Assembly (NCBI GenBank): GCA_043767805.1 | Contig: JAYUGC010000066.1 | Location: 1 to 64,000 of the forward strand | Direction: 5' to 3' | Origin: Pseudomonadota bacterium | GTDB taxonomy: Bacteria; Bdellovibrionota; FAC87; UBA2466 | DNA length: 64,000 nt | Shown: positions 1,083-38,630 of the stretch, piece by piece | How the letters are laid out: every line of letters starts with the position of its first letter | Position numbering within the stretch: the first letter of the stretch is position 1 | Made by a program: the position numbers and the translations under genes | The notes under the pieces: model-generated | The model's input: only the letters and a program-made list of their open reading frames with translations | What the model was told of the DNA's origin: nothing | The model's database searches: none

Positions 1083-1309
1083 GTTGTCACTTGGTGAATC
1101 GGTGAAGGTGCACTCAGTTTACACACCAAGAATCTCTCTGACTAGTCGATGACTTACACCGAGGGCCGGAATGGCGAGCTGGGCATTGTGAAAATTGATT
1201 CGGTGCATTATACTTTTATTAACTCATCCACATTGGGGCCAAAGACGAACGGGTGCGAAGCGCATGGGGTCGCTTCTCATTTTCCCTCGTAGCCCTCCGG
1301 TCGCAAAAT

Positions 1310-4300
1310 ATGTCCAAAAAAATTATCGCTTTCACCGCGGCTTTGGTTTGCCTTGCCTTGCAGACTTCCTGTCGGCTGGGCTCGGACTACACGGTCACCG
1401 AACCTACGACGCTAAATAGTGGGGGTTCGGGAGTTACCGCGGCAGGTTCCGTGTCTGCCATAGTCTTGGTGGGACCTACCTTCATCAAAGTGGATGGATG
1501 CCGCGGACCCTTCACCGTGGTAGGGCACGACGACCAAGGCCGCTCCGGCGCGGTGTTTTCCGGCGGCTCCAGCGTCCGCATCACCGGCCTACCGCCGGGA
1601 ACGGGAATCTTCTCCGACTCGTCTTGCTCGACGGGCGCGGGAAACAGCGGGTTGCAGGTTCCTTCCGAAGGCAGCCCTCGTCTCGAATTTTATCTGACTC
1701 CGGTCAGCCTCGGAGAAGCCAATCTCGCGGCCTCCAACGGCTCATTGATCGAAGGCCACTTCAAGACCACGATTCTCGCGGGCTCCGCTCGCGAAGCCGT
1801 CATTCTTTCCCCACGCAATATTTCCGCTTTCCGTTGCGTGCAGGCGTCGATCTACTTAAGAGACGCGCGCGGTAACCGCACCAATGCGGAAGAGACCATC
1901 GATTTCGACTTGAGCCTCTCGAACTTTCCGCGCCTAAATTTCTACGCGAACGCGGGCTGCACCATCGCCACGAGCTCGGCGCGCGCGCTTTCCGGCGCCT
2001 CCGAAACGGCGCCCTTCTATCTATTCGCGAGCGGCGCGGGCGACGGCGTCATCAACGCCGCGCCGAACTCGGCCACCATCGATGTCGCTCACAGAGACGT
2101 GAGCGCCATGGTGAACGACGCGCCTCGCCTGACTTTCTCTCATGCGGCCGGCCGGCATGCCGTCCACACGTGTCTTGCCGTCACGCTGCTGAGCCAAGAT
2201 TCGCAGGGCTCGGAACTTAAAATGCGCGTGCCGACGACGGTACAGCTCGAAGACAACTCTTCGAGCTTCCAGTTTTTCGGGCAAGCGGGTTGCACGGGGG
2301 CGATTACTTCCGCGGATTTCGCCGCTCAAGCAAGCAGCGTGACCTTCTGGGCGTCCACTGACGTAGGGCCGCAGACGGTCGGCATCGCCGCGCGCGAGCC
2401 GAACTACGTTTCCGCCGTTTCGAGCTTGCAATGGATCGCGGGCGCGCCGAAAACCGTCGAGTTCTTCGCGCTCCTCCCCACGTCTCACGTGGGCGATTCG
2501 ATGCCGGGCTTCGTGAAACTGAAAGACGCCTATAACAACTACGCCGTGGTCAGCCAAAGAACGCCCATCGTCTTGGCCAAATCGTCTAACTCCGTCGCCA
2601 ACGTGAAATTTCTCGCGGGCTCTTGCCAGGGCCCTCAATCGCCGCAAATTCACGTCGAAGTGAACGAGGCCAGCTCTCCGTTCTGTCTCCTCTTCACCAA
2701 GCCGGGCGCGCTCACCATCGGCGCGAGCTCCGCCGGGCTCATTCCGGCGAGCGCCGACATCATGGTTGGCCCTTATGGCGGCCCCGCGAGCCGGCTCGTA
2801 TTCGATACGGTCGCCACCGTGGAAGCGGGCGTGTGCGTGCCTTTCACTCTCAAGGCGCAGGACGCCTTCCAAAATCCCCTTCCCGTGGGACAGGCCATCA
2901 ATTTCAAGTTGTCTTCCCCGTCTCCAACGGCGCGCTTCTTCTCGAGTGGAGCCCCTTGCAACGGCGCTATTTCCGCCATCGTCATGCCGCAAGGTAGCTC
3001 CAGCGTGACTGGCTATTGGTCCGACACCAAGGCCGGCAGCACCGTTTTGACGACAAAAAACGACCCGGAAGTCCCGCTTCCGCTCGATGCTTCCGCGACG
3101 GTCGAAATCCTCGCGGGCCGCCCGACGCAAATCGTCTGGCAAGGCATCGCGCCGGGGGCGTTCCCGGGCCAAGTGATCGGCCCCGTGGCTTTAATTGCCA
3201 AGGATGCGTTCGACAACCCCGCCCGGCTGGCCCAGGCGTTGGTGGCGACAGTCAGCGTGCCGGGCGCGGCGGACAACAAATTCAGCGTGAACGATCCGTC
3301 GTTCAACACGTCCACCACCCAGGTTACGATTCCGGTGACGGAAAATCGCCTGGACCGTATCTATTTGCGCGTTCGTTCGATCGGTAATTTCGACGTGGTG
3401 GCGCACCCGACGGTGAGCTCCATCGCCGATGCGAGCACTCGTTTGGAAATCCGACCCGCGCCGGCGACGAGCCTTCGTTTGACGGTTGCGACGACGAGCC
3501 CGGCCGCGGGTGACTGCGTTCCCGCGACGGCGACTCTCGTGGACGGCGACAATAATCCGCTCGTTCTCGATCCGGTCTCGCTCAGCCTTTCTTCCGACAG
3601 CCCGGTGGCGGGCGTCTTCAAAACGGCGTCCGATTGCACCCGTGGTCTTTCCCCGGAAAAATTGAATCTGACTCCGGCTCAGCCGGTCGGTCAGTTCATG
3701 GTGCGCACGACCCTTGCCGGCCCGCTCCAGATCAACGCGATTTTGGACGGCACGACCCAGACGCGCTCGGTGACCTTGAACGTCGGTCCCGGCGGACAGC
3801 GCCATCTCGATCTCGAGTCGAGCGGCCCGAATCAATTCTTGATGGGGGGAGTCGGCGGCCCGTACGAAGTCGTCTTGCGCGACGGGTTTGGTAACCTCGT
3901 GAAGCCCGACACCAACCAACCGATTTCCTTGAACAGCAGTCCCGCGGATCTTTCGATCCTCGCGGGCCCGACGGTGGGCTCCGGGACTCCGGTACTCTCA
4001 TCCCTGACTGGCCGAGGCAATTTCTATCTGACCGGATCGGTTCCCGGCGTACATACCATCTCGGCGGTTTCCGGCGGCTTAACCTCGAGTAACCGGTCGG
4101 TCACGGTCCGCAACCTTACGCCTACGATTCTCGCCGTGGTTCCCGGCGAAGGCCCCACCGCGGGTGGCACTCGTATCGTCCTCACCGGAACGGAATTCGT
4201 TTCCGGCATGGGCGTGATGGTCGGCGGCGCGGCTTGTTCGAGCGTCAGCGTGACGAACCCGAGCTCGCTGGCTTGCACCACGCCCGCGGGAACCGCGGGA

Positions 4301-6901
4301 AAAGTGGACGTTGTCGTCTCGCCTCCGAATGGCGCGGCGGCGAACATGCACGAAGGCTTTACCTATCTCGCTCCGGCCCCGACCTGTGTCGGCATTCAGC
4401 CTTCCGAAGGCCCCGAAGCCGGCGGCACGCCGGTTACCGTCATGGGCAGCGGATTTATCGCCGGCGCGTCTGTCACTTTCGATGGCCTGGCTTGCGCGAG
4501 CTTGCAAGTGTTCTCGGCGACCGAGATCCGTTGCCTGACGCCCGCGCATCCGGCGGGTACCGCCGTAGTCGAAGTGCGTAACCGCTACTCTTATCCGTGG
4601 AGCTCTGCGACGGGATTCTATTTCCGCAAAAATCCCCCCGTCGTGGGAACGATCTCGCCGGCCGAGGGTCCTTCCGCGGGCGGAGCTAACGTCAACATCC
4701 AAGGCCGGGGCTTCCTGCGGGGTGTAACGGTTGCCTTTGGAGGATCGACCTGCGCCGTGACGTCCGTAACCAACACGCTGGTGAAATGTACGACCTCGGC
4801 CCATGTTCCAGGGCCAGTACCGGTGTCCGTGAAGAATTCGGACTCGTTCCCGTTCACGCGCGCCAACGCCTACACGTATCTGAGCCCGGCACCGGTCCCG
4901 ACCCTCATTACGCCGGTCATGGGCAGTTATCTCGGCGGCACGGTCGTCACCATCAACGGTAGCGGCTTTTTGCCGGGCGTCCGAGTGAATTTCGCAGACA
5001 GTCCCTGCGCGTCCGTCATCGCTTCACAAAGCACCATAGTCTGCACGACCACGGCGCATGCTCCGGGAGCCGTGGCGGTGAAAGTTTCGAACGTGAACTC
5101 GCTACCGGCTAAGCTGCCGATGGCCTTCACCTATTTGGGTAACGCTCCGACCATCGCGAGCGTCACTCCCGGCTCTGGTCCCGCGACGGGCGGGACGCCG
5201 CTTACCATTCGCGGAAACGGCTTCCTCCCGGGAGCCACGATCTACGTCGGTGCCTCGGTATGTATCAACAGCCAATGCCCGAGCCCGGGGGAACTGCATT
5301 GCACCACGCAAAGCCACGTTCCGGCTTTGGTCGACGTCATCATTTCGAATCCGGGCTCGATCGCGGGCCGCCTGCCCTCGAGCTACCGTTACCTCGCTCC
5401 CGGCCCCGTGGTTCAGTCCGTGGTGCCCGCCTTCGGCTCTTATCAAGGCGGCACTCCGGTTACGGTCACCGGTACGGGCTTCATGGCCAGCGCGCAACTC
5501 TCTTTCGGAGGCTCCGTTTGTAACGGAGTCGCCCTCGACTCCCCGACGCACTTGCGTTGCACGACGTCCGCGCACGCGGCGGGACTCGTGGCGATCTCGA
5601 TTAGCCAGGCGGAAAGCCTCTCGGGATCGGGCGGCAACTTCTATACGTACGTGGGAGCACCGGTCATCAATACCCAGACGAACACGTCTCCGGGTCTCAC
5701 GCCCACCACGGGCTTGAGAGACACCTCGACCCGCGTCACCATCACCGGAACGAATCTTTCGCCTCCGGGGCAAGAGCCGGCGGTGACGATGAGCAACCAG
5801 CCTTGCGCGATCGTGTCCTACGCGAAGGCGCAAATCGTCTGCAATACGTCGATTAACCTGCCGACGGGGCCGCACCCGGTCGTCATCAGCCACGTCGGCG
5901 GATCGACTCCCGCGGCGGGACCGCCGATCTTCACGGTTACCGACATTTCGTTTAGCCCCACCGAGCCCCTCAATCCCAGACGCGGATTAGTGCAAGGCGG
6001 AACGGTCATCACCATCAAAGGCACGGGCCTCACCGACGCTCAAGGGCGCACGGAAGTACGTCTCGATGGGATTCTGTGCCCGCTCGTTTCCGCGGTGGCA
6101 ACTCAAGTGGTTTGCACGACGCCGCCTCACGCACTGGGCCCGGTGAACGTGGTGGTGTCGCAAGGCGGATTGTCCGCGACGGTGCCCGTGCCCTTCACTT
6201 ACGTGGATTGCACCAGCGCCGTGGCCGTCGTCGATGCGGCGGCGAGGGCAAATTTCCTCGGTGCGGACGGCGCTCGCCAGAACGGGCTCTGGTCCCAAGG
6301 AGCCAACGTTCCCAAATTCTGGAACCCGTACTACGGCAATGGCACCGGTATCAACTACTTCAATAACGACGCGAGCCGCTTGAACGCTTGCCGCATGCGC
6401 GGTTACTCGCGCGTGGAAAGCTACACGGTGAACTCTTGGAGCTCGCCGCACAACAACTCCGAGATGATGTGGAACGACGCTTTGACCACGTACGAAATCG
6501 TGCGCGGCTCCTGGCCGGGTATGAATACGTTCACCAACACCTACGTCTGCGCGGGCAAGCTCAATGCCGTTTGCGACAATCCGAAATGGATTTTCCCGCG
6601 GGCGCCGGCAGGCAAATGGCATAACGTGGATCAGCTCCACTGTCCCACCTTCTGCTCGCAGATTGGTTTTACGAACAACCCGAGCCCGGAAGGCATGCGT
6701 TGCGTGGCTGGCGAGCAGCAGGCGGCTTCCGCCTATCCTTATATCAACTATCGCTACGGTTACTGGCGCAGCCGGGAAATCCCGGGGCGCAGCTCGAGTG
6801 ACGCCTCGAGCGGTAACTTCAACGAGGAGTGCTACGCTAGCGGGCAAAAGCATGACCACGACTCGACGGACAAGACGGTCGGTTGCTGGTGCTCGCGGTA
6901 A
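1310..6901 (+). CDS. Giant surface protein (probable lipoprotein) with Ig-like repeats, 8 IPT/TIG repeats and a Cys-rich C-terminal domain
   Basis: Likely start MSKKIIAFTAALVCLALQTSC (lipobox-like); repeated P..GP..GGT.VT..G.GF...C..C.T..H..G.V.V.V units at about 4117-6205; N-terminal repeats with D..GN and FF...C motifs. Confidence 0.85.
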   Translation: MSKKIIAFTAALVCLALQTSCRLGSDYTVTEPTTLNSGGSGVTAAGSVSAIVLVGPTFIKVDGCRGPFTVVGHDDQGRSGAVFSGGSSVRITGLPPGTGIFSDSSCSTGAGNSGLQVPSEGSPRLEFYLTPVSLGEANLAASNGSLIEGHFKTTILAGSAREAVILSPRNISAFRCVQASIYLRDARGNRTNAEETIDFDLSLSNFPRLNFYANAGCTIATSSARALSGASETAPFYLFASGAGDGVINAAPNSATIDVAHRDVSAMVNDAPRLTFSHAAGRHAVHTCLAVTLLSQDSQGSELKMRVPTTVQLEDNSSSFQFFGQAGCTGAITSADFAAQASSVTFWASTDVGPQTVGIAAREPNYVSAVSSLQWIAGAPKTVEFFALLPTSHVGDSMPGFVKLKDAYNNYAVVSQRTPIVLAKSSNSVANVKFLAGSCQGPQSPQIHVEVNEASSPFCLLFTKPGALTIGASSAGLIPASADIMVGPYGGPASRLVFDTVATVEAGVCVPFTLKAQDAFQNPLPVGQAINFKLSSPSPTARFFSSGAPCNGAISAIVMPQGSSSVTGYWSDTKAGSTVLTTKNDPEVPLPLDASATVEILAGRPTQIVWQGIAPGAFPGQVIGPVALIAKDAFDNPARLAQALVATVSVPGAADNKFSVNDPSFNTSTTQVTIPVTENRLDRIYLRVRSIGNFDVVAHPTVSSIADASTRLEIRPAPATSLRLTVATTSPAAGDCVPATATLVDGDNNPLVLDPVSLSLSSDSPVAGVFKTASDCTRGLSPEKLNLTPAQPVGQFMVRTTLAGPLQINAILDGTTQTRSVTLNVGPGGQRHLDLESSGPNQFLMGGVGGPYEVVLRDGFGNLVKPDTNQPISLNSSPADLSILAGPTVGSGTPVLSSLTGRGNFYLTGSVPGVHTISAVSGGLTSSNRSVTVRNLTPTILAVVPGEGPTAGGTRIVLTGTEFVSGMGVMVGGAACSSVSVTNPSSLACTTPAGTAGKVDVVVSPPNGAAANMHEGFTYLAPAPTCVGIQPSEGPEAGGTPVTVMGSGFIAGASVTFDGLACASLQVFSATEIRCLTPAHPAGTAVVEVRNRYSYPWSSATGFYFRKNPPVVGTISPAEGPSAGGANVNIQGRGFLRGVTVAFGGSTCAVTSVTNTLVKCTTSAHVPGPVPVSVKNSDSFPFTRANAYTYLSPAPVPTLITPVMGSYLGGTVVTINGSGFLPGVRVNFADSPCASVIASQSTIVCTTTAHAPGAVAVKVSNVNSLPAKLPMAFTYLGNAPTIASVTPGSGPATGGTPLTIRGNGFLPGATIYVGASVCINSQCPSPGELHCTTQSHVPALVDVIISNPGSIAGRLPSSYRYLAPGPVVQSVVPAFGSYQGGTPVTVTGTGFMASAQLSFGGSVCNGVALDSPTHLRCTTSAHAAGLVAISISQAESLSGSGGNFYTYVGAPVINTQTNTSPGLTPTTGLRDTSTRVTITGTNLSPPGQEPAVTMSNQPCAIVSYAKAQIVCNTSINLPTGPHPVVISHVGGSTPAAGPPIFTVTDISFSPTEPLNPRRGLVQGGTVITIKGTGLTDAQGRTEVRLDGILCPLVSAVATQVVCTTPPHALGPVNVVVSQGGLSATVPVPFTYVDCTSAVAVVDAAARANFLGADGARQNGLWSQGANVPKFWNPYYGNGTGINYFNNDASRLNACRMRGYSRVESYTVNSWSSPHNNSEMMWNDALTTYEIVRGSWPGMNTFTNTYVCAGKLNAVCDNPKWIFPRAPAGKWHNVDQLHCPTFCSQIGFTNNPSPEGMRCVAGEQQAASAYPYINYRYGYWRSREIPGRSSSDASSGNFNEECYASGQKHDHDSTDKTVGCWCSR

Positions 6902-8225: not shown

Positions 8226-9011
8226 TTGAGACCAGGCGAAAACCGAAACTTGCCACGGGCGCCGTCTCCCTCCACCATCAGGGCGGTGGGCCGAACGCTC
8301 AAATTTTCTTTCGAACGAAAGCACCGCGCCCAACCTTGGGCGCTTGAGTGTGCGCTTGGCGAACAGATTTTCGAAGAAGTGAAAGCGGGGCTGTCTTTGA
8401 ACGATCGCCGCTTCGATCGTCTCTTCTCGCCGCGAGCCCGGGATGCTTCGGCTCAGCATTGGACGCCGCTATCGGTGGCGAAAAGAGCGGCGGAGCTATT
8501 AACCGAGGGACAGGGTCGGTTCATTCTCGACGTCGGCTCGGGAGTCGGAAAATTCTGTTTCATCGGAGCCCTCACCACGCCCGGGCATTTTGTCGGTGTG
8601 GAAACACGTGAGTGGCTGGTGCGCGAGTCCCAGGAGCTCACGCGAAGATTTGGTATAGAGCGTGTCGAGCTCGTTCGAGGAGGCATGCGAGAGGTGGATT
8701 GGGACCTCTTCGACGGACTCTATTTCTACAATCCCTTCTACGAGCATCTCGAGGCTGCCTCCCGTATCGATGAGTCCTTGGAGCTGAACCGGCAGACCTT
8801 CCGCGAGGAGATGGCTTGGGTGATGAAACGGCTCGAGACCTTAAAGCCCGGCGTGAGAGTCGTGACGTTCCACGGCTTGGGCGGAGCTCTTCCCGCCTCG
8901 TTCGAGCTCCAGGGCAAAGAGCCGGCCGGAGAAGATTTTCTGGAGCTCTGGGTGAAGCGCTCCGAAGTCGTGCGCCGCATTGATGACGAAAAGTATCCAG
9001 GGGCGCGCTAG
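8226..9011 (+). CDS. Class I SAM-dependent methyltransferase (start uncertain)
   Basis: ILDVGSGVGKF motif I; HWTP and YFYNPF motifs. Confidence 0.8.
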   Translation: MRPGENRNLPRAPSPSTIRAVGRTLKFSFERKHRAQPWALECALGEQIFEEVKAGLSLNDRRFDRLFSPRARDASAQHWTPLSVAKRAAELLTEGQGRFILDVGSGVGKFCFIGALTTPGHFVGVETREWLVRESQELTRRFGIERVELVRGGMREVDWDLFDGLYFYNPFYEHLEAASRIDESLELNRQTFREEMAWVMKRLETLKPGVRVVTFHGLGGALPASFELQGKEPAGEDFLELWVKRSEVVRRIDDEKYPGAR

Positions 9012-10672
9012 GTCGTGGCTTCGCCTCGCACTAACCGGCGCAACGCGAGAGGATGAGTCGAAATCGGCTTATGCTCGTCCAATCCAACCACCGTTAGGTT
9101 AAGCCCTTGTCGCGCAAACTCCGTCCCCAGATCCTCGAGCTTGGCCATGACGCTATGGTCGACGACGCGCGCATTAGACAAGTCGACTTCGATGTTCTTA
9201 CGGCCGGCGATTCCCAAGGTATGAATCTTTCGGCGCACGACGATCCAGGTACTGAACACCGCCGCTTGCTGAGGCGCGATCTGGAGCGTGTCCCCGGTCT
9301 TCTCTTTGACTTCGAAAGTCGGCGAAAAGAGGGCCTTCAAAGGCGCGCCGTGGAGAAGGTGAAACGCGAGCTCGACCGCGATACCGATGCCAATGCCCAC
9401 CAACAGATCCGTCGAAAGAACGCCGACGATGGTCGAGAGGTAGACCACAAACTGTTCCCAGCCGATCTTGTAGACATGAAAGAACTCTTTCGGAGCCGCG
9501 AGTCTCAGTCCCGTATAGACCAGCATCGCGGCGAGCGCCGCGAGCGGAATGCGGTGAATGAGCACGGGCGCGAGAACCACGAAAGCGAGCAGGAAAACGC
9601 CGTGGAAGAAGTTCGAGTCGCGGGTTCGCGCTCCGTTATCCACGTTGGCGCGGCTCCGCACGATTTCCGAAATCATCGGCAATCCGCCGATGAGCGCGGC
9701 CAGGGTATTTCCCACGCCCACCGCGAGCAGATCCCGATCGAGATTGGTCTTGCGCTTCCAAGGGTCGAGAAGATCGATGGCCTTGGCGCTCAGAATCGAT
9801 TCCATGCTGCCAATGAGCGTGAACATGATTACCCACTTCCACGCCTTGGGAAGTAAGAGCGCGCTGAAATCCGGGAACGTCATGGCGTTGAACAGATTCG
9901 ACGGCACGGCCACCAGCTGCGACTGACCGACGAGATAGGCATGCCCATGCCAGAGATAGCCGTGGTCGTGGGCAAAATCGAAGAGAAAACCGAGCGGAAT
10001 GCTGACGGCGACCACCAGCATCGGGGCCGGAACCATACGGAAATACTTATTCCGCACGAAGGGCGCCAGCACGAGAATCAAGAAACTGATGCCGCCGATG
10101 AGCGCGACTTCCGGATTGAGACGGCTGATCTCTTCGGGGATTTTCATGAGCAAAGTAAACGGGCTTCCGGAAGCGCTAACCCCCAGCAAAATCGGCACCT
10201 GCTTCACGATGATGATGACGCCGATGGCGGCCAGCATGCCGTGGACCGCCGCCGCGGGAAAAAACTCGCCCAAAATGCCGGCGCGAAAGAGCGCGAGCAC
10301 TATTTGCAGCAGGCCCGCCGCCACGCCCACCGCGAGCGCGAGCTTATAAGCGTTCATATCGGCCGGGAGCGATTTGCCGCCCGTGTATCCGAGGTCGGTG
10401 ATGCAACCGATAGCGATGACGATGAGTCCCGCCGCGGGTCCTTTAATGGCCAAAGGAGAATCGCTGATGAACTTACCGACGATGCCGCCGATGACGGCCG
10501 TGAAAATTCCGGCGATGGCCGGGTAACCGCAGGCTAGCGAAATGCCCAGCGACAGGGGCAGCGCAATCAGGAAAACCAAAAAACCCGCGCTGATATCGAA
10601 GCGTAACGATTCACGAAGGGAAGTGGGAACGGGCCCGACCGGCGCGGAAGGGCCAGTTTTTTTCTCAGTCAT
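9008..10672 (-). CDS. sulP: SulP/SLC26-family inorganic anion (sulfate/bicarbonate) transporter with STAS-like C-terminus
   Basis: DISAGFLVFLIALPLSLGISLACG, GPAAGL, GGLPMISEIVRSRAN, IPLAALAAML; many TM segments; VDLSNARVVDHS STAS-like. Confidence 0.92.
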   Translation of the reverse strand: MTEKKTGPSAPVGPVPTSLRESLRFDISAGFLVFLIALPLSLGISLACGYPAIAGIFTAVIGGIVGKFISDSPLAIKGPAAGLIVIAIGCITDLGYTGGKSLPADMNAYKLALAVGVAAGLLQIVLALFRAGILGEFFPAAAVHGMLAAIGVIIIVKQVPILLGVSASGSPFTLLMKIPEEISRLNPEVALIGGISFLILVLAPFVRNKYFRMVPAPMLVVAVSIPLGFLFDFAHDHGYLWHGHAYLVGQSQLVAVPSNLFNAMTFPDFSALLLPKAWKWVIMFTLIGSMESILSAKAIDLLDPWKRKTNLDRDLLAVGVGNTLAALIGGLPMISEIVRSRANVDNGARTRDSNFFHGVFLLAFVVLAPVLIHRIPLAALAAMLVYTGLRLAAPKEFFHVYKIGWEQFVVYLSTIVGVLSTDLLVGIGIGIAVELAFHLLHGAPLKALFSPTFEVKEKTGDTLQIAPQQAAVFSTWIVVRRKIHTLGIAGRKNIEVDLSNARVVDHSVMAKLEDLGTEFARQGLNLTVVGLDEHKPISTHPLALRRLVRGEATT

Positions 10673-10730
10673 ATGAAGATCCTCTGAAACCGAATTGAAT
10701 TAGGCAATTGACTCGAGACGAGGGACGGCA

Positions 10731-11066
10731 TCAGGCAAGGCGTGGGGGAGCGCGCGGAGATCTCAGAGTGAGGCGAAGTCGGCTGAAAGAGAGGAAAGCG
10801 GAAATCGACGGCGCTTTCGTGACGACTTCACAAAAGGGGCCATGCACGAAAGCGGAAGACAGTAGCCCCTTTGCGGACTCTTCGGTGTCTTCCAAATCTT
10901 GCGCCAGCGCCTTGAGGGGGGCCAATTCGGAAGCCCGCTTCTGACGGATCGGCAGGCTCGAGGCGGTTTGAACGCGCTGAGAGAGCCCTTGCCCCTTGAG
11001 CTGAGGCGCCGCCAAGTCGGCACCACCGCCCAGGAGCAGCGTGAAAATTAATACCCAAGACTTCAT
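10731..11066 (-). CDS. Small signal-peptide protein ending in RAPP; candidate ribosome-arrest leader peptide for sulP
   Basis: N-terminal MKSWVLIFTLLLGGG, C-terminal SPRAPPRLA*; same strand, 58 nt upstream of sulP. Confidence 0.65.
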   Translation of the reverse strand: MKSWVLIFTLLLGGGADLAAPQLKGQGLSQRVQTASSLPIRQKRASELAPLKALAQDLEDTEESAKGLLSSAFVHGPFCEVVTKAPSISAFLSFSRLRLTLRSPRAPPRLA

Positions 11067-11184
11067 ACGTTTCTGATTGAGCGCCTAACCTACAACGCGC
11101 GTCGATCCTAAATCAAAGGTTAGTTACGTAAATTCCGGTTCAAAGAGTCTACTATCGAACCTTCAATATCATAGAAAGATTTCA

Positions 11185-12903
11185 CTAAGCCGCAAGCGAC
11201 TCGTAAAGCTCTCGGGCCTCAAATCTTTGCGAAGGCACTATGCGCAGACGATAGGCTCCGCTCAGGGGCTCGAGCTCCTGAACCGATCCTGCCTCAAAAC
11301 CCAGAGGGAGCACTTCAGGCAGGGTTTGCTCGACGGCCGCTTTCAGCTCGGGGCTCACCTTGCCGGTAAGCCAAAGCTTCACGCGCACACTCGTTTCCGA
11401 AGGACGGAGGTCGAGCGCGATGCCCATTTCTTTCAGCTGAAGGTACGAAATCCCTTTCCCCTCGAGACGCCGCCGGAGGGCCTTCTCCGCGCTCTCGGCT
11501 TTCGAGATGAAATCCGCCCGCCGCTCCACGGGAATGCCATGGTTCGTGCCGAGGTAGGACGCGGGCAGGAAGGTCACCCGAAAATCGTTGGACTCCAGGG
11601 CGCTTTGTCTGAGCCCGAGCAAAAAGCGCTCACGTTCCGGCTCGCTCATCGCCTTCGCGGGATAAAACACGCCGTCGTCGCCTGAGAAAATGAGAGCCTT
11701 GCCGACGATGCCCGCCGCTTTCAAAGCCATTTCGAACTTCGCCCGGCGCGCTTCGAAGGCGGCGGAGGCCGCGGTCTGCGCCACGCGCGTTTGTTCGACG
11801 GCACGGACCGCCGCTCCGTCCCTCGGTCCGTCGGCCGCTTTGGCGAGAGCCGCCATGACCGCGTGCAGGTTGCGCACGTTCTGTCCGGCCAAATCGGCGG
11901 CGACCAAGCCCTCGGTCGCCTTCTCCAGGCCCATGCTCAAGGTTTCCTGGGCTTCATAAATACTGGGCGCGAACGTTTCGACGAGATCGAAGTACGTACG
12001 GAGGTCGGAAAGCGTTTCCTCATTTACCCTCAGGCCGAAACGCCGCAAAAACGCCGTTTGCACGAAGTCAGGTTCCTCCCCGGAAGCTTTCTTGAGAATT
12101 TCTATGGCCGCGGGAGAGAGAACGTACTTACCGTCCTCTCCACGCGTGAATGCTCGTGATTCTCCGCCGGTGTAGAGATTTTTGTAGAGCTTCTTTCGAT
12201 ACCGCTCTGCCGCCAGCGCTCTCGTATTCAAGTGCGCCCGGGTCGCCGCGTCTCCAAAATCCTGCCAGCTATTAGAAACGGTGTACCGGGCAAAGCGCGC
12301 GGCCGTTCCCGCCTGATCGGCGGTGGCGCCAAAGCCCGCGAGATGCCAACGGCTGGAATTGCGAATGGTGCTTCCCGGAAAATCATAGAGCGGCTCTAAA
12401 GCGGTATAGCGCTTCAGAGCCAAGTTGAACTCAGCCGACGCGGACTCCAAAGCTTTCGTCAGATGCTCGCGCAAAGCGGGAGAGTCCGTGTGGAAAGCAA
12501 AGCGAAGCGTCTTATAGTCGGAGTAAACCCGGTCCGGGCGGAGCGCGGGATCCGCCATGAGATGCTTTATGAAAATTTGCTCGTAGAGCGCGACGACGGA
12601 GGCCGACACTTCCTTGTCTTTGAAGTATTTGTCGTTCATCGCCTTCAAAACGGCATTCTCCACATGGAAAAAGAGGCCATACTTTTCCGGCGTCAAAGCC
12701 GCGGCGAGGAAGCCTGCATTGTCGGCCTCTTGCACCCGGTAGCTCAGATGCGCCTTGAAGGAGTGAAGCGACGAGCGCGCTACCGCATCGTAAGCCCCTT
12801 CGCAGGCGACGTCCCGCAAGGGATCCAGAACCCGTGGGAGGGCCGCGGCCAACGCCAATGCGAAAAGGAGGCGCCCCACGCGCCGAAAGGAAACCAGACC
12901 CAC
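11185..12903 (-). CDS. Secreted/membrane-anchored hypothetical protein
   Basis: Long ORF (track start 12921; GTG at 12903 fits the sigma54-like site); hydrophobic LLFALALAAAL then DVACEGAYDAV. Confidence 0.7.
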   Translation of the reverse strand: MGLVSFRRVGRLLFALALAAALPRVLDPLRDVACEGAYDAVARSSLHSFKAHLSYRVQEADNAGFLAAALTPEKYGLFFHVENAVLKAMNDKYFKDKEVSASVVALYEQIFIKHLMADPALRPDRVYSDYKTLRFAFHTDSPALREHLTKALESASAEFNLALKRYTALEPLYDFPGSTIRNSSRWHLAGFGATADQAGTAARFARYTVSNSWQDFGDAATRAHLNTRALAAERYRKKLYKNLYTGGESRAFTRGEDGKYVLSPAAIEILKKASGEEPDFVQTAFLRRFGLRVNEETLSDLRTYFDLVETFAPSIYEAQETLSMGLEKATEGLVAADLAGQNVRNLHAVMAALAKAADGPRDGAAVRAVEQTRVAQTAASAAFEARRAKFEMALKAAGIVGKALIFSGDDGVFYPAKAMSEPERERFLLGLRQSALESNDFRVTFLPASYLGTNHGIPVERRADFISKAESAEKALRRRLEGKGISYLQLKEMGIALDLRPSETSVRVKLWLTGKVSPELKAAVEQTLPEVLPLGFEAGSVQELEPLSGAYRLRIVPSQRFEARELYESLAA

Positions 12904-15774: not shown

Positions 15775-16683
15775 ATGAGACACGGGCACGATCACCATCA
15801 CCACGACAGCGGCCCGTGCGCCCCGAAAAACACGCGCACTCTTTGGCTCGTTTTCTTTTTGTCCGGCGGCTACATGGTAGCCGAAGTGGTGGGCGGCCTT
15901 TGGACCGGCTCACTGGCCTTGCTCGCCGACGCGGCTCACATGGCGATCGACACGGGCGCCATCGCTCTCGGGCTTTTCGCCACTTGGATTGCGCAGCGCC
16001 CACCGACGGACGCAAAAACTTACGGTTACTACCGGGCGGAGATTCTGGCGGCTCTCCTTAACGGCTGCGTTCTCATCGGTGCGGCCGCCTGGATCATCGC
16101 CGAGGCCCTTCCTCGTTTCAGCACTCCTCCGGAGATTAAAGGATCCGCGATGGCGATCATCGCCTCGGGCGGGCTCATCGTGAACGTCGTCTCGCTTTGG
16201 CTGATGCATGGAAGTGACAAGGATCATCTGAACATGCGTGGGGTTTGGCTTCACCTTGTCGGCGATACCTTGGGCTCGGTGGGCGCCATCACCGCGGCGG
16301 TGCTCATTTGGAAGTACGGCTGGAACCTCGCCGATCCGATCCTCTCCGTCGTCCTCACGTTACTCATCGTTTTCGGCGCCGGCCATTTACTCGTCGACTG
16401 CGTGAACGTGCTTTTGGAAGGAGTTCCGAAGCACATCGATTTACCGGCGGTGAAACGCGACTTGGAAGCGGCGGGCGGTGTAAAAAATGTGCACGACCTG
16501 CACGTTTGGCTTGTGACCAGCGGCCTCACCGCGCTCTCCGCGCACGTCACCGTAAACGAAGGCCGCGATCACTCCGAAGTCTTGCGCGTGCTCACCACGC
16601 TCCTCCACGACCGTCACGGCATCGAGCACGTAACTTTACAACTCGAAGCCCCCACCTTCGCCCACCGCGACCTCCACGTCTAA
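15775..16683 (+). CDS. Cation diffusion facilitator (CzcD/ZitB-like Zn/Co/Cd efflux)
   Basis: His-rich N-terminus; SLALLADAAHM, TYGYYRAEIL, HLVGDTLGS, HDLHVW, HVTLQLE. Confidence 0.93.
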   Translation: MRHGHDHHHHDSGPCAPKNTRTLWLVFFLSGGYMVAEVVGGLWTGSLALLADAAHMAIDTGAIALGLFATWIAQRPPTDAKTYGYYRAEILAALLNGCVLIGAAAWIIAEALPRFSTPPEIKGSAMAIIASGGLIVNVVSLWLMHGSDKDHLNMRGVWLHLVGDTLGSVGAITAAVLIWKYGWNLADPILSVVLTLLIVFGAGHLLVDCVNVLLEGVPKHIDLPAVKRDLEAAGGVKNVHDLHVWLVTSGLTALSAHVTVNEGRDHSEVLRVLTTLLHDRHGIEHVTLQLEAPTFAHRDLHV

Positions 16684-16714
16684 AAGGCCCCCCTCGCCGC
16701 GGCTACGCCGGCTC

Positions 16715-16743
16715 GCCAAAAGGTGTGTGGATACTTTTAGCCA
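16715..16743 (+). repeat. Left copy of perfect 29-bp inverted repeat (REP-like) flanking the RAYT
   Basis: gccaaaaggtgtgtggatacttttagcca; exact reverse complement at 17427-17455; imperfectly self-palindromic. Confidence 0.9.
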
Positions 16744-16747
16744 ACGA

Positions 16748-16763
16748 CGGCACGATTCCTGCT
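16748..16763 (+). promoter_or_regulatory. sigma54-like promoter candidate (CGGCACG-attc-CTGCT) for the RAYT
   Basis: GG-N10-GC with GGCACG, 17 nt before ATG 16779. Confidence 0.5.
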
Positions 16764-16778
16764 TTCGAACGCCTCGCT

Positions 16779-17468
16779 ATGCCAAGAATGAAGCTTGTTC
16801 GAACCGCACGCGGCGTTTATCACATCACCAACAGAGTTAATCATAAACATGATTTTCCACTCCCACTCGAAGAGTGCTGGCCGATTTTCATGAATATTTT
16901 AGAGAGGGTAACTGAGAACCTATCGGCGGAAATTCACGCTTTTGTCCTAATGTCTAACCACTATCATCTATTCCTAACGACCCCACTCTTCAACGTTGAC
17001 GTAATAATGAAATATGTGAATCGGGAAGTAACCCGGGCGATCAGTCGGAAAACCGGTCTGATAAATCATATTTTCGGTGCGAGGTATCACCCCAGCCTTG
17101 TCTACAACCCACGAGACTTTGCTCACGTCCTGAAATACATATATAGAAATCCCGTGAAAGCAGGATTGGTAAAGAGCGTCGAACAATATCCTTTCTCCAC
17201 CGTATCTAGCTTAGTTCACGCAAGTCGATTCGAATTTCTGAGAGCGAGCAAATTTTTCCCCGATGCCCTGTCCGGACTTCGCCCTGCGGAGAGATTATTT
17301 TGGCTCAATGAGCCTCTGGCTAAAGAACAGGAAGAGCTGATTCGAAAGGCAAATAGGAGGCGAGAGTTTCAGTTCTCGAATCGCGTCGCCGAGCAGAAAG
17401 TGGCTGCCCAATTATCTCCGGCACCCTGGCTAAAAGTATCCACACACCTTTTGGCTAAGGGCTGCTGA
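16779..17468 (+). mobile_element. REP-associated tyrosine transposase (RAYT, IS200/Y1 HUH family)
   Basis: YHITNR, AFVLMSNHYHL (HUH), YIYRNPVKAGLV, YPFST; visibly lower GC than flanks; bracketed by 29-bp IRs. Confidence 0.9.
17427..17455 (-). repeat. Right copy of 29-bp inverted repeat (REP-like)
   Basis: tggctaaaagtatccacacaccttttggc; overlaps the RAYT 3' end. Confidence 0.9.
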
Positions 17469-29264: not shown

Positions 29265-30341
29265 CTATTCGGCCGATCGGGCGTACTGGTCGGGAAACTT
29301 CACGGCGTCCCTTTGCCCGAGAGCGCGGGCCGCATGGACGGGCCAATAGGCATCGCGCAGTTGCTGCCGGCCAAGGAGCACGAGATCGGCCTTGCCACTC
29401 GCAATGATTTCCTCGGCTTGGGCGGGCTCGGTGATGACTCCGACCGCCGCCGTCGCGATGCCGGCGCCTTGGCGTATTCCCTCGGAGAGCGGCACTTGAA
29501 AACCAGGGCCGAACGGAATTTTGGTGATGTCGTTGCTATTGAATCCCGAGCTGCAGTCAATGAGATCGACGCCTTCCGCTTTGAGGCGCTTCGCTAGCTC
29601 GATGGAATCTTCGAGGGCCCAACCGCCAGGCGTCCAATCCGTGCAGGAAAGCCGCACGGTAAAAGGAAACTTGTCGGGCCAAACCGCCCGCATCTCGCGC
29701 GCGGTTTCCAAAACGAAACGAACGCGGTGGTCGAAACTGCCGCCGTAATTATCCGTGCGCTTATTGGAAAGAGGAGAATAGAAACTGTGCGCGAGATAAC
29801 CATGGGCGGCGTGGAGCTCTAGCCACTCATAGCCGGCTTCGAGGGAACGGACGGTCGCCTCGCGAAAGGCTTTTTTCACGTTCGCGATGTCGGCCAAAGT
29901 CATCGCGACGGGTGCGCGATCGATTCTCCCGCCGAAAACCTCCCCGGAAGGAGCGAGGGTCGACCAGCCACCTTCGGCATCTTTGAGCGATCGGCCGCCT
30001 TCCCAAGGCCGCGCCGTACTCGCTTTGCGCCCGGCATGAGCGAGCTGAATGCCGGGGACTGAGCCGTGGGCTTTGAGAAATCGTGTGATGCGAGCGAGCG
30101 GCTCGATTTGAGAGTCTTGCCAAAGGCCCGCGTCTTCGGGAGAGATCCGCCCTTCGGGCGTCACGCCCGTCGCTTCGGCGATGATAAGCGCCGCGCCGCC
30201 CACCGCGCGCGAGCCGAGGTGCACCAAGTGCCAATCGGTCGCGTGTCCGTTTTCGGAACTGTACTGACACATGGGCGAAACGCCTATGCGGTTCTTTAAG
30301 GTGACGGACTTCAATTTGAACGGATCGAATAGATGCGGCAT
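29265..30341 (-). CDS. NADH:flavin oxidoreductase, old yellow enzyme family (YqjM/NamA-like)
   Basis: SPMCQYS, QLAHAGRKAS, HAAHGYL, NKRTDNYGGS. Confidence 0.93.
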   Translation of the reverse strand: MPHLFDPFKLKSVTLKNRIGVSPMCQYSSENGHATDWHLVHLGSRAVGGAALIIAEATGVTPEGRISPEDAGLWQDSQIEPLARITRFLKAHGSVPGIQLAHAGRKASTARPWEGGRSLKDAEGGWSTLAPSGEVFGGRIDRAPVAMTLADIANVKKAFREATVRSLEAGYEWLELHAAHGYLAHSFYSPLSNKRTDNYGGSFDHRVRFVLETAREMRAVWPDKFPFTVRLSCTDWTPGGWALEDSIELAKRLKAEGVDLIDCSSGFNSNDITKIPFGPGFQVPLSEGIRQGAGIATAAVGVITEPAQAEEIIASGKADLVLLGRQQLRDAYWPVHAARALGQRDAVKFPDQYARSAE

Positions 30342-30359
30342 GGGGAAAACCTACTCCAT

Positions 30360-31646
30360 TTACTTCGGTCCGGCGAGAGACGGGCGGTGCAATTTTCCGG
30401 AGCCGGTGCGCGGAATGGATTCCTCTTTCGAGAACCCATGGGGGATGTGGTCGGGCGGTAACTCTCCCCTGAGCTTGCCGAGAGTTTCCCCCACGCTCCA
30501 ATTCGCCTGGATGGGAACGACATACGCGTGAGGCACATGTCCGAGAGTGGGATGCTCTTTCGCAACGACCGCGAGGTCGGAGAAATCCCCCGTGCGCCAA
30601 AGCGCATCGGCAATGACCAGAAGGCTCACCTTGTTTCCCGCGCATTTGAAAATATCATCGAGGCGCCCACTGAGCCGCAGCCGGCCGAGCTCGTCCATGA
30701 CGCCCGTGTCGCCGCTTCGCAACCAGCCGTCCGCCGTGAAGCCTTCCCGCCCTCTTCCGTCGTAGCCCAGCATCACGGTCTTTCCCGAGAACTGGACTTC
30801 GCTGGTCTCGGGATCGAGGCGCGCGTCGAGTCCTTCGATGGGCAGGCCGACAGAGTCCTCTATGCCACTCACCCTATCCCCGCCATTGATGAAGCCGCGG
30901 CCCGAGAGCTCGGTCATGCCGTACACGATATTGATTCTGGCTGCGGGGTGGCGGTAGCGGATCGCGCGGGCCGTCTCGGGATTCAAACGATCGCCCGAGG
31001 ACAAGAGCCACCGCCACGGCCGGCTGGACTCGAGCGCCCAACGTAAGGGAAGCGGCGAAGCGCCTAGCGCGTCCACGCCGAGCCGTTCCACTTCGCGCAG
31101 GAAGGCGCCCGGAAAATAACTCCGCTCGTGCCCCAGGTAAGACGCCCCGGATTTCAGCGCGACGAGAAAATGAGAAAAGCTGCTTACGAAAGTGTACGGA
31201 ATCGGAACGAAGAGGCGGCTTCCCTCTTCCAGACCGAGGCGCGCCGCGGACGCGGTGGCATTCGAGAGAATGCCTTCGGCGGAAAGCAGCGCCCCTTTTG
31301 GCGTTCCCGTGGAGCCGGAGGTAAACCAAACGGCCGCTTCTCCTTCACTTGGGCGGCGAATGACTTTATCCACCGCCGCGCGCAAAGCGTCCGAGGGCGT
31401 AGGCGGGCAGGGGACCGGGATGGAGCCGTTCAGCCAAAGAGCTACGGTATCGATCCAGTAAGCGAGACCACGACCCGAAGAGTTCAGAACGCGCTCGCCA
31501 GGCCGGTGCTCGCGCAGCTCTCCCTTGCGCTTCAACACGGCGGACTTGAAGGCGTCTGCCGTCAGCGTTTCGTTCTCGCTCTCTAATGTGAGTTGCGGGG
31601 CCCGGTCGAGCCAGTGAAGCACGGCCTCCCCGAGAGATTTGGCCAT
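30360..31646 (-). CDS. Class I adenylate-forming enzyme (acyl-CoA/acyl-ACP ligase-like)
   Basis: FTSGSTGTPKG, YGMTE, SGDTG, GRLDD, PRTGSGK. Confidence 0.9.
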   Translation of the reverse strand: MAKSLGEAVLHWLDRAPQLTLESENETLTADAFKSAVLKRKGELREHRPGERVLNSSGRGLAYWIDTVALWLNGSIPVPCPPTPSDALRAAVDKVIRRPSEGEAAVWFTSGSTGTPKGALLSAEGILSNATASAARLGLEEGSRLFVPIPYTFVSSFSHFLVALKSGASYLGHERSYFPGAFLREVERLGVDALGASPLPLRWALESSRPWRWLLSSGDRLNPETARAIRYRHPAARINIVYGMTELSGRGFINGGDRVSGIEDSVGLPIEGLDARLDPETSEVQFSGKTVMLGYDGRGREGFTADGWLRSGDTGVMDELGRLRLSGRLDDIFKCAGNKVSLLVIADALWRTGDFSDLAVVAKEHPTLGHVPHAYVVPIQANWSVGETLGKLRGELPPDHIPHGFSKEESIPRTGSGKLHRPSLAGPK

Positions 31647-31713
31647 GGCAAAGATTATACACGGACTTAAGTCAGAGACACGTCCGAGCGATCCAAGTGT
31701 TAACTTGGAAAGT

Positions 31714-34700: not shown

Positions 34701-35196
34701 CGTTGGCGGGCGGCGAAATCTGTTCTCGGTAGGTCACGAGAGCGAGCATTTCTTCGAATGGCACGACGCCCGCGGCGACCAGCATCGCGTACTCGCCGAA
34801 AGAATGGCTGGTCAGCACCTTCGGAAAGATCCCGCGGCACAAGAGCGAGTCGAAGAGCGCCACTTCGAGTACGAAGAGACTCAAATTCTGGATCGGTAAG
34901 AGGGAAGCCGGGTCCGCGCCTTCTTCGGCCAAAATATGAGAGGAGATCTTGGGAAGGCCGGCACTTACCACGAGCTTATCGGCCTTCTCGAAGACGCCGC
35001 GAATCTCGGGACGGTGGTACTGATCGCGGAGCATGCCCGGGTGCGCGGCGCCTTGGCCGGCAAAGAGAAATCCCCAGCTCGCCTGAGCCGTGGCGGGCTT
35101 CACTTGCAGCTGGTAGCCGCCGCCAAAGATAGACTCCGAGCGCACTTCGGCTTTCTGGTACCAGTTGAGGCCATGCAGGAAGGAAGTGCGGTTCAT
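31714..35196 (-). CDS. Pfa-type synthase subunit: AT-ACP-KR-DH
   Basis: FAGQGA, SHSFGEY, PYHS (AT); DLGIDSIKK (single ACP); GGAKGIT and GNPGQTIYAAAN (KR); DHRIEGLAYLP and LFHGPAFQ (DH); ATGA overlap with upstream KS gene. Confidence 0.88.
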   Translation of the reverse strand: MNRTSFLHGLNWYQKAEVRSESIFGGGYQLQVKPATAQASWGFLFAGQGAAHPGMLRDQYHRPEIRGVFEKADKLVVSAGLPKISSHILAEEGADPASLLPIQNLSLFVLEVALFDSLLCRGIFPKVLTSHSFGEYAMLVAAGVVPFEEMLALVTYREQISPPANERGYLVAVGADRERTAVLLRGRNVHLSNFNSPTQTVIAVAPGEVDEIERLIKDKGVKAKRLLTPQPYHSPFLLSLKPVMRKFLRSRSWNFSPPAIPFVSSVLHRQVDATNFKADDIFFILENQLVEPVDFIRQMGVMSEGGTTKFMEIGPTSLLSALARECGAKETLWVGDLLRKTPRKKAAAAKAKKPAGRVLSIVNDVIGKITGYQIEEISLEDRFQEDLGIDSIKKTEILFSVMDRLNFKPEGEVNYARFTKVEDLVGYMETEAPAAKGAEAMPEKVGHFERKRVAWFPQALDPIWEVSVEATPLMIPLTPADFLTDFDPKALAAEFRQQLASCRTRQVIFVATGFVSDLSLTADGSLNQWLETGLPRAAEAVQEVVRIEPKLAELTIGFVTMGQGSVITEAIAAFFKALRKESPEIRFKHIRLDDADPKIEALRWIREEMRDPLEWEVRYREGVRYVARLEAMPDPDALQSLPPNAVVVAIGGAKGITQSLLLGLDHVGHLHLCGRSSETEITPHLDTLRAKHPELSYETVDATRQEEVAPYLERILDKHGRIDLLIHASGVEVSRALGAKTAEEIRSELWAKALSAAHVVRAVAANPPKRILFFSSVVSWFGNPGQTIYAAANAVLDRFCRELNSAWGAGSAASLLWPPWDGVGMTANRAIRQGLVQKGLSLLTPEKAAELFRQDLFQSEGPVLYFDDTDWLAYGQSLATGFPELLGTSVAGRGVYRYVRRLDPAFDTMLSDHRIEGLAYLPAAAGVAMSLAGLYLHHKRWVGLADFVAQSPIVVGDKGADLSMEARAGQGVLEITISSDHGSFRACEAEGTAALPPLWREAANAQTVGERQIYAPQGLFHGPAFQTLSNVLIDGRGDAVARLNTFGLADLFPNDYSASFWGRLIQWIDTAFQMTAVIEIERNGNYCLPVRVAHVLTYFTHRPSEKVSLRLEQFESDGTSVKSEVALFDENGRCFLWLRGIEMKVARGAGARSGKLPSTG

Positions 35197-38118: not shown

Positions 38119-38213
38119 GGGGAAATTGTACCAGTCGGCCCCTTTTGGGGTGCAAAGTGCCCAAACGCGGCACCCCTCCGAGGGGAGAAGCACCTCCCCT
38201 CGAAGGAGGAAAC

Positions 38214-38229
38214 CGGAACACCTCTTGCA
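38214..38229 (+). promoter_or_regulatory. sigma54 promoter candidate (CGGAACA-cctc-TTGCA)
   Basis: GG-N10-GC with TTGC, upstream of ORF 38272. Confidence 0.5.
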
Positions 38230-38271
38230 CAAGAGAACCTCAGGGCTGCATTGGCCCTGGAGGCGGTAGGC

Positions 38272-38574
38272 ATGGACCCACACTGGCTTAAATACAAGAA
38301 CGACGACGAGATCGGACCCTTGCTCGCCAGCTACTCGCACACCGACGAGCAGCTCGACTTTCTCAAAAACGATCTCCGCGACAACGGCAATATCGAGGGC
38401 ATCCTCGCCGTCTCTCGCCGCCAAGTGGCCATAAAGTACAAAATCTCGAAGCTGGTGGGGGCCGAGGAAGACCGCCACTTCCAAAGGCGCATGAGCCTTT
38501 TGTGGATGCTCGGGGTTTTCGCGCTCGTTCTGGTCGGCGCGGCGAATCTTGCGCTGCGTCTCGGAATCTTTTAA
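38272..38574 (+). CDS. Small hypothetical protein with C-terminal TM helix
   Basis: RBS ggagg, MDPHWLKYKND...; hydrophobic LLWMLGVFALVLVGAANLAL. Confidence 0.65.
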   Translation: MDPHWLKYKNDDEIGPLLASYSHTDEQLDFLKNDLRDNGNIEGILAVSRRQVAIKYKISKLVGAEEDRHFQRRMSLLWMLGVFALVLVGAANLALRLGIF

Positions 38575-38586
38575 CCAGTTTTCCCT

Positions 38587-38614
38587 TAAACAATAGGCAG
38601 GTAGCGACCGATAG
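38587..38614 (+). promoter_or_regulatory. sigma28/FliA-like promoter candidate (TAAAC-N15-ACCGATAG)
   Basis: Close to TAAA...GCCGATAA consensus, 17 nt before the SPFH start. Confidence 0.55.
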
Positions 38615-38630
38615 AGCATTCGGTAGCAAA

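Follow-up and report, generated by a model that had tools for sequence, protein, structure and literature searches.

The first 64,000 nucleotides (nt) of contig JAYUGC010000066.1, from a Pseudomonadota bacterium placed by GTDB in the Bdellovibrionota, constitute the stretch of DNA analysed here and are called the window throughout. On its minus strand, a gene for a SulP/SLC26-family anion transporter (sulP) is preceded by an open reading frame (ORF) of 111 amino acids (aa), which starts like a secreted protein and ends in the ribosome-arrest motif RAPP. This upstream ORF (uORF), called the leader below, is very probably a real coding gene. Judged from its sequence, its product likely arrests translation, and the balance leans slightly towards a control of sulP by the leader. 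The explanation that we favour, and that we hold to be reasonably probable as a whole, is that of a secreted leader which stalls the ribosome at RAPP and controls sulP in cis, with a slight preference for a coupling that involves the termination factor Rho. The class of leaders in question was published in December 2025, and SulP targets are present in that work though undiscussed. Since the class is already on record, the ORF is to be seen as a new member of the RAPP/RGPP arrest-peptide leaders that stand before diverse genes, while the peptide family that it forms with its homologue, P0121, appears from the comparisons made here to be new and unannotated.

The leader ORF and its C-terminal RAPP motif

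The leader ORF runs from position 11066 to position 10731 of the minus strand, from an ATG start to a TGA stop (10733-10731). Its N-terminal sequence is MKSWVLIFTLLLGGGADLAAP and its C-terminal sequence is ...RLTLRSPRAPPRLA, the last residues being ...LRSPRAPPRLA. The anatomy given in the original prediction, namely a 111-aa ORF with a hydrophobic N-terminus and an SPRAPPRLA* end, located 58 nt before sulP, was borne out in the sequence in all its parts. The N-terminal segment MKSWVLIFTLLLGGGA reaches a best 10-residue Kyte-Doolittle mean of 2.52 and carries K2 before the hydrophobic segment, and a cleavage of the signal peptide after GGA is possible according to the rule of small residues at positions -3 and -1.

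This build is rare in the window. Among the 298 ORFs of 60-300 aa, only four, the uORF included, show an equal N-terminal hydrophobicity with a preceding K or R. The motif R[AG]PP is found eight times in the six frames (471 ORFs of at least 40 aa, 59,454 aa in total), and only one of the 298 ORFs, the leader, has it within 12 residues of its end. The combination of both frequencies (1/298 and 4/298) gives an expectation of about 0.01 or fewer such ORFs per window; the coincidence of a signal-like N-terminus and a C-terminal R[AG]PP is unlikely to be the work of chance. Another of the four hydrophobic ORFs, of 98 aa (44859-45155, plus strand), has a strong signal-peptide-like start (MKFWMLMLCAITLFTASLAKAEDE...) and is devoid of RAPP.

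Inspection of the translation reveals a single cysteine, C79, within the sequence HGPFC, and no CxxC. The peptide matches no Pfam family at E <= 1, DUF2946 included, and no NCBIfam family. AlphaFold2 (AF2), run on the two-sequence alignment of the leader and P0121, gave a mean predicted local distance difference test score (pLDDT) of 47.9, with helices at residues 3-13 and 88-101 only. The model thus suggests a largely unstructured peptide, as other arrest peptides are; the ApdA homologue of S. lividans, SLIV_07330, likewise has little predicted structure (PMC12992588). In the ESM Atlas the top scores (0.95-0.96) belong to unnamed clusters of 110-122 aa and the nearest named entry is CzcI (0.92), all of which serve as leads only.

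Conservation in a full-length homologue

An exhaustive phmmer search against 1.84 billion cluster representatives returned two matches at E <= 0.001. The first, P0121 (115 aa, E 2.7e-18, 47% identity), aligns with the leader from Met1 to the last residue, and all the insertions and deletions are in-frame and located before residue 45. The identity differs greatly from one segment to another: 19 of 25 positions in residues 1-25, 15 of 25 in residues 55-79 and 12 of 18 in residues 94-111, compared with 8/29 and 1/14 in the segments between them. P0121 keeps the RAPP motif, the next arginine, the final alanine and the position of the stop (S-RAPPR-A*). From the central segment to RAPP the alignment is gap-free, and the distance between C79 and R105 is 26 residues in both peptides. 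Such a pattern reads as the result of selection on three elements: the signal peptide, a central element, and the arrest module. The view that the ORF is a genuine gene gains from this comparison, both the signal-like N-terminus and the C-terminal RAPP being kept in its sole homologue. It had also been pointed out that the leader has a single cysteine, in HGPFC, and lacks the CxxC of the copper leaders. The one cysteine and the lack of CxxC stand, but HGPFC is not conserved as a motif, as only G76 and C79 are retained in P0121 while His75, Pro77, and Phe78 are changed.

The second match, P0122 (1,018 aa, E 1.6e-10), was discarded as a homologue because it is repetitive and covers residues 71-90 only. 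It consists of around 18 near-identical repeats of about 55 residues each, with the sequence GPFCRW, and resembles a translated tandem DNA repeat. A word-based search with the uORF in 5.8 billion proteins gave no match, and a search of the same collection with the two-sequence profile (leader plus P0121) returned P0121 alone. The exact leader protein is missing from this collection, which does include the adjoining SulP; the leader ORF is therefore unannotated.

The same absence would be expected if the ORF were an untranslated frame, open by chance in an extended 5' region rich in GC, and some other observations point that way and against a translated leader. The codon score of the uORF frame, although the best of the six (0.134), falls short of the mean for genes (0.274 +/- 0.104) and is equalled by 34% of off-frame ORFs, which makes it ambiguous. 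No Shine-Dalgarno-like tetramer precedes the uORF, a lack that it shares with 16 of 28 scanned long ORFs, and ORFs in other frames overlap it, which is usual at 60% GC. A scan of positions 8800-11400 for sigma-70 sites found none, the scan itself being uninformative. In addition, there is one homologue only, and it comes from two short contigs, the longest of 1,126 nt. Nonetheless, a chance frame would hardly have a full-length homologue with the identity noted above, with the same start and stop and with in-frame indels only, nor would it easily join a signal-like N-terminus to a C-terminal R[AG]PP, given the joint expectation per window. We consider a chance frame very improbable.

No known RNA leader or riboswitch was recognised upstream of sulP in Rfam scans, with no family at E <= 1 in positions 10500-11300 and none at gathering scores in the whole window. 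A terminator scan of 8800-11400 gave one terminator-like site, inside sulP (9436-9423), and none in the spacer.

The published RAPP/RGPP class and its SulP-linked members

The tetrapeptides RAPP and RGPP are depleted in bacterial proteomes, but an enrichment is seen towards the C-termini of small secretory and membrane proteins, whose ORFs precede a variety of genes well beyond sec and yidC (Fujiwara et al., EMBO J 2025, PMC12992588). Arg-dependent arrest has been reported for seven of seven tested proteins of S. lividans and for CruR of B. pertussis (PMC12992588). The original prediction had relied on the stalling of ApdA, ApdP, and SecM by RAPP/RAGP and on the RAPP end of CruR, and both statements agree with the literature (PMC12992588 for the former; PMC12992588 and PMC9426467 for the latter).

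The part of the source list of Fig. 4B of PMC12992588 that was examined comprises 8,420 rows. At least 15 of them place a RAPP ORF upstream of a 'SulP family inorganic anion transporter'. Of the 15 listed, 13 end 1-7 residues after RAPP, as counted from the printed sequences, and have an N-terminus that is hydrophobic as judged by eye; the other two have RAPP in the middle of the protein. One of the listed rows is L011, a locus that also emerged from the survey described below. The Fig. 4B matches listed contain zero rows for LysR, ATP-binding cassette (ABC) transporter, response-regulator, TetR, and major facilitator superfamily (MFS) transporter products. The list therefore seems restricted to enriched product classes, and we infer that SulP passed the enrichment test of that study (adjusted p < 0.01). 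It is important to note that the 30-row enrichment table of the paper does not include SulP and that the main text never mentions it. The table, from the Fig. 4B source, does have 'Cation:proton antiporter' in its top 30, with 75 RAPP vs 81 AAPP cases (3.6-fold), and thus ion-transporter targets are already on record. With SulP-linked RAPP ORFs in the source data and cation:proton antiporters in the table, the belief that this target class was undescribed has to be given up. A full-text literature search found no paper treating a link between SulP or anion transporters and RAPP arrest peptides (the term 'sulp' also catches 'sulphate').

Recurrence and rarity at related SulP loci

The loci of the 80 best SulP relatives (50-60% identity, one genome per species) were surveyed for leaders. 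A first scan, of ORFs ending at most 400 nt upstream of SulP, was positive in one of the 80 loci, L011, from an Acidobacteria metagenome-assembled genome (MAG). A relaxed scan covered 700 nt upstream and extra motif variants, and was applied to those 77 loci that had 400 nt or more of sequence before SulP. It returned L011 (RAPP), L037 (RGPP), and two RSPP segments, 35 and 40 codons long, which were rejected as leaders, being short and regarded as chance. The L037 ORF, in a Rubripirellula MAG (L037:3126-3404, plus strand), encodes 92 aa with a signal-like N-terminus, an acidic tract, one cysteine and the end ...ERGPPAV*; it lies 533 nt before the gene for a 680-aa SulP (L037:3938-5980). As a control, both strands of the 80 loci were scanned (678,664 nt, 3,743 ORFs of 50-300 aa). 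R[AG]PP was found within 15 residues of the end in eight of these ORFs, among which only those of L011 and L037 have a hydrophobic N-terminus (hydropathy of at least 1.99, vs at most 0.97 in the other six). Both are placed directly upstream of SulP and co-directional with it, a search space that amounts to about 4% of the sequence. The peptides of the window, L011, and L037 have no detectable mutual similarity. The arrangement thus exists beyond this locus, since the same build stands before SulP in the listed Fig. 4B rows, in L011 and in L037.

The survey of SulP relatives that had been suggested as a check on the prediction gave a divided answer: the build recurs, in L011 and L037, but it is missing from 75 of the 77 loci. 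On a FastTree tree of 81 sequences the three leader-bearing SulPs are scattered, the three changes required being the number obtained with shuffled labels, and the sister loci of the leader-bearing SulPs have no leaders. The leader is not a conserved feature of this SulP transporter. From its presence in 2/77 loci and the window, scattered on the tree, it follows that the leader is rare, is not ancestral to the SulP subfamily, and has been repeatedly gained or replaced.

This sporadic distribution speaks against a tie between leader and transporter, and it would suit an ordinary small secreted protein with its own function, in which RAPP is tolerated or mildly slows the ribosome and sulP is expressed independently. 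Other points in the same sense are that the segment of residues 55-79 is conserved beyond the need of an arrest module, that sulP has its own AGAGGA, and that RAPP by itself is insufficient for arrest, which requires a suitable upstream context in which the preceding residues count (PMC12992588). An ordinary protein, however, would not explain why RAPP and its three-residue tail are, with the signal peptide, the best-kept parts in P0121, nor why the build turns up again in unrelated peptides ahead of SulP genes. Moreover, AF2 finds no fold in the leader, RAPP-type motifs are strongly avoided in proteomes, and the C-terminal cases arrested in all seven of the proteins tested as well as in CruR (PMC12992588). 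An ordinary secreted protein is, in our opinion, unlikely.

Proposed mechanism and coupling to sulP

In the explanation preferred here, the leader would be a translated, Sec-targeted, and largely unstructured peptide whose C-terminal RAPP stalls the ribosome. On the model of ApdA, ApdP, and CruR (PMC12992588), the ribosome is predicted to halt three codons short of the stop, where Pro107 (CCC, 10748-10746) would occupy the P-site and Pro108 the A-site. The stalled ribosome, 76 nt before the sulP ATG, would control sulP in cis. The exit tunnel of the ribosome has a length of about 30-35 residues, and on this account the segment of residues 55-79 is placed just outside the tunnel at arrest. The stall would be released by a pulling force on the nascent chain, due either to Sec export or to the folding or binding of that segment. 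After release, the ribosome would terminate and leave the mRNA bare.

Two types of coupling may be considered. In one of the CruR type, the stalled ribosome would shield a C-rich tract from Rho, so that transcription would reach sulP only during the stall. In CruR, a C>G bubble extends from the unstructured region of the uORF into the spacer, and stalling prevents Rho-dependent termination (PMC9426467). At the present locus, the C/G ratio of positions 10797-10720 is 2.77, which belongs to the top 0.07% of 9,836 windows, and the peak is centred on the predicted arrest site, within a wider tract with C/G >= 1.5 at about 10668-10862. Taken as the maximum over 250 nt upstream, this value is reached by none of the 27 other genes of the window. 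L011 also has a C/G peak (2.13-2.54) around its RAPP. By analogy with CruR, the C-rich tract at the arrest site lends modest support to a Rho protection of the same kind. On the opposite side, the C/G ratio at the arrest site of L037 is only 1.58, three of the 73 other SulP loci, which are leaderless, attain the maximum of 2.77, and the RAPP codons themselves supply part of the C-richness.

A second type of coupling, similar to that of SecM, would rest on RNA structure: the leader stalls, a helix formed by codons 99-103 hides the sulP ribosome-binding site (RBS), and the stalled or queued ribosome opens the helix, with the result that sulP is translated. The minimum free energy (MFE) and centroid folds do contain a helix of 10-12 bp between 10771-10759 and 10685-10674, and when 221 nt are folded, the pair probabilities between 10775-10755 and 10690-10670 add up to about 8 base pairs. 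With no ribosome on the RNA, most of the RBS is in base pairs (mean unpaired probability 0.18). The anti-Shine-Dalgarno tract, given its distance from the P-site, would presumably be covered in part by the stalled ribosome and completely by another queued behind it, if the footprint sizes that we assume are right. Against a SecM-like coupling, the modelled cost of opening the sulP start falls by only 1.0-1.9 kcal/mol on stalling (8.2 kcal/mol at first, 7.0-7.2 once a ribosome has stalled, 6.3 when a second queues behind it), and the RBS re-pairs locally when the ribosome footprint is blocked in the model. The duplex energy of the helix (-15.4 kcal/mol) is equalled by 20.5% of the shuffles of the last 100 nt and by 3.9% of those of 46 nt, and the folds of the whole region show no excess of stability over shuffles (z +0.9). 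In L011, the RBS is found in a spacer hairpin about 90 nt from the arrest site, indifferent to stalling (opening cost of 12.8 before and 12.1 kcal/mol after). The pairing first proposed for the spacer, between a CCCUC tract and the GAGG of the RBS, fares no better in the models: the tract is present (10724-10720) and begins soon past the stop, at a distance of 7-11 nt, but the summed pair probability is 0.006. A SecM-like coupling is accordingly held to be rather doubtful, and the CruR-type coupling through Rho is slightly preferred by analogy.

It is also conceivable, though we regard it as speculative, that one SulP subfamily has come repeatedly and independently under unrelated secreted arrest peptides (window/P0121, L011, and L037), which might sense conditions in the membrane or periplasm that matter for ion transport. 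The cue might be the energisation of the membrane, through the rate of export, or else pH or an anion, through the conserved acidic/Cys segment, which is held 26 residues from RAPP and would therefore be at the tunnel exit during arrest.

The sulP gene and its surroundings

Of the two parts of a SulP/SLC26 transporter, the Sulfate_transp membrane domain and the C-terminal STAS domain, the product of sulP clearly matches the first in Pfam (E 8.4e-58) and, weakly, the second (E 0.067; 13.4 bits vs a cut-off of 22.6). It falls below the cut-offs of the NCBIfam models for sulP, BicA, and DauA. The ATG is at 10672, on the same strand as the uORF, with AGAGGA ending 7 nt before it. A convergent methyltransferase-like ORF (8226..9011, plus strand) has a stop that overlaps the sulP stop by 4 nt (9008-9011), from which it follows that sulP closes its transcription unit. 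The coordinates of the elements discussed are collected in Table 1.

Table 1. Position of the leader, the transporter gene and the candidate control elements in the window.
Feature	Position	Strand	Details and basis
Leader ORF (uORF)	10731..11066	-	111 aa; not annotated in any collection searched
Signal-peptide-like N-terminus, residues 1-16 MKSWVLIFTLLLGGGA	11019..11066	-	Hydropathy, identity with P0121, AF2 helix
Central segment, residues 55-79 AQDLEDTEESAKGLLSSAFVHGPFC	10830..10904	-	15/25 identical to P0121; candidate sensor or interaction element
RAPP codons R105 CGC, A106 GCT, P107 CCC, P108 CCA	10743..10754	-	Invariant in P0121
Stop TGA, 3 codons (R-L-A) after RAPP	10731..10733	-	Tail of P0121 likewise 3 residues, R-V-A
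Candidate anti-Shine-Dalgarno tract, uORF codons 99-103	10759..10771	-	11-23 nt upstream of the P-site codon
C-rich, G-poor peak, candidate rut-like Rho-loading region	10720..10797	-	C 36, G 13 in 78 nt
Spacer, 58 nt, with sulP RBS AGAGGA (10685-10680) and CCCUC (10724-10720)	10673..10730	-	
sulP, 554 aa, anion transporter of the SulP/SLC26 family, at the end of its unit	9008..10672	-	Pfam
Gap of 118 nt, upstream 578-aa ORF to uORF start; presumed promoter region	11067..11184	-	

The closest SulP relatives have 58-64% identity and include MAGs of Planctomycetota and Bdellovibrionota. Many of the nearest relatives (P0004, P0010, P0016, and others, of about 640-680 aa) carry precomputed PF00543 (P-II) matches in addition to Sulfate_transp. 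The SulP of the window (554 aa) has no PF00543, and that of L037 (680 aa) belongs to the length class of the P-II-bearing proteins. The presence of PF00543 in the relatives hints at a regulated role of the subfamily, possibly linked to inorganic carbon or nitrogen. The genes found upstream of SulP in the surveyed loci are of several kinds. A Proton_antipo_M (NuoL/M/N-like) gene lies directly before SulP in the four loci scanned for it, planctomycete and other (L025:2395-3873, L040:2355-3842, L015:2470-4008, and L071:2061-3932), and the N-terminus MxELHFPWLE is seen in many more loci. Other upstream genes encode an ArsR-type regulator (L009, scanned; L007 and L010, by their similar N-terminus) and a CitMHS transporter (L016 and L039, both scanned).

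Other genes in the window

The remaining observations concern genes away from sulP. The ORF at 1253-6901 (plus strand; 1,882 aa) has eight stretches of IPT/TIG domain (E 3.3e-105) and probably encodes a large surface protein. A 407-aa ORF at 16245-17468 (plus strand) matches no Pfam family and has a GC content at third codon positions of 0.45, while the other 27 long ORFs range over 0.61-0.77; an atypical composition, a wrong frame or foreign DNA may be the explanation. A cluster on the minus strand (29265-35280 and 37297-38640) includes a multidomain protein of 1,188 aa with acyltransferase, ketoreductase (KR), and dehydratase parts, similar to polyketide synthases (PKS) and polyunsaturated fatty acid (PUFA) synthases, an AMP-binding enzyme, an oxidoreductase of the Old Yellow Enzyme type, and a protein similar to enoyl-ACP (acyl carrier protein) reductases. 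At 41480-44744 (plus strand), a gene for a 685-aa protein with two D-Ala-D-Ala-ligase/ATP-grasp halves overlaps the start of a Peptidase S58 (DmpA-like) gene.

Implications

If the leader stalls and controls sulP, an anion transporter would be under a nascent-peptide sensor. A system of 111 codons and a 58-nt spacer is compact and tractable, and it suits questions that the 2025 survey brings up, such as the source of the releasing force at targets unrelated to export or the choice between Rho and the RBS as the point of coupling. The scatter of unrelated leaders before one transporter subfamily would mean that control of this kind is easily gained. Were the broader idea of a sensed ion-transport state true, arrest-peptide control would extend from protein export and copper to ion-transport homeostasis, a direction in which the cation:proton antiporter rows of the published list also point. 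From a practical point of view, annotation-based surveys undercount leaders, because an ORF like this one is absent from the protein collections searched.

Comparison with known systems

The best known arrest peptides, SecM, ApdA, and ApdP (as cited in PMC12992588), share with the leader a signal peptide, a C-terminal RAPP/RAGP arrest core, a length of about 110-170 aa, a short tail past the arrest point, and an arrest that could in principle be released by the force of export. The monitors of Sec and YidC (SecM, VemP, MifM, ApdA, ApdP, and ApcA) differ in their targets, as the downstream gene is here SulP, with no obvious feedback loop; for this reason the leader is not taken as a Sec/YidC monitoring substrate. 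The unmasking of the RBS typical of SecM is, in addition, weakly supported at this locus by the folding models.

CruR of Bordetella pertussis (Bp2923, DUF2946; Roy et al., mBio 2022, PMC9426467) resembles the leader in its signal peptide, its unstructured C-terminal half and its C-terminal RAPP, in a C>G tract that goes from the 3' part of the uORF into the spacer, and in a conserved motif at fixed spacing from RAPP (CxxC in CruR, residues 55-79 in the leader). In both cases a stalled ribosome is proposed to block Rho, for the leader by analogy only. The two systems differ in their target, an anion transporter here and a TonB-dependent copper transporter in CruR, and in their spacer, of 58 nt here and of 162 bp in CruR. 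These likenesses, including the long unstructured region, could suggest that the leader is itself a copper- or metal-sensing peptide of the CruR/CutF (DUF2946) type. Such an identity is scarcely credible, given that the leader has no match to DUF2946 or to any other Pfam family at the threshold used, that it has a single cysteine instead of CxxC, that His75 is not kept in P0121, and that SulP is not a copper-related protein.

The closest likeness is to the RAPP/RGPP class as a whole (PMC12992588), whose members have fewer than 300 aa, begin with a localisation signal, end a few residues after RAPP, and are followed by a co-directional gene across an untranslated spacer that does not couple translation; 13 of the 15 listed SulP-linked ORFs are alike in this respect. 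On the evidence of its sequence, the locus has every one of these features. It departs from the rest of the class in three ways: its spacer measures 58 nt, vs 80-465 nt in the 13 listed SulP-linked cases (PMC12992588); its ORF is unannotated and hence would escape an annotation-based survey; and its peptide is unlike those of L011 and L037, so that it stands as a separate peptide family with one known homologue.

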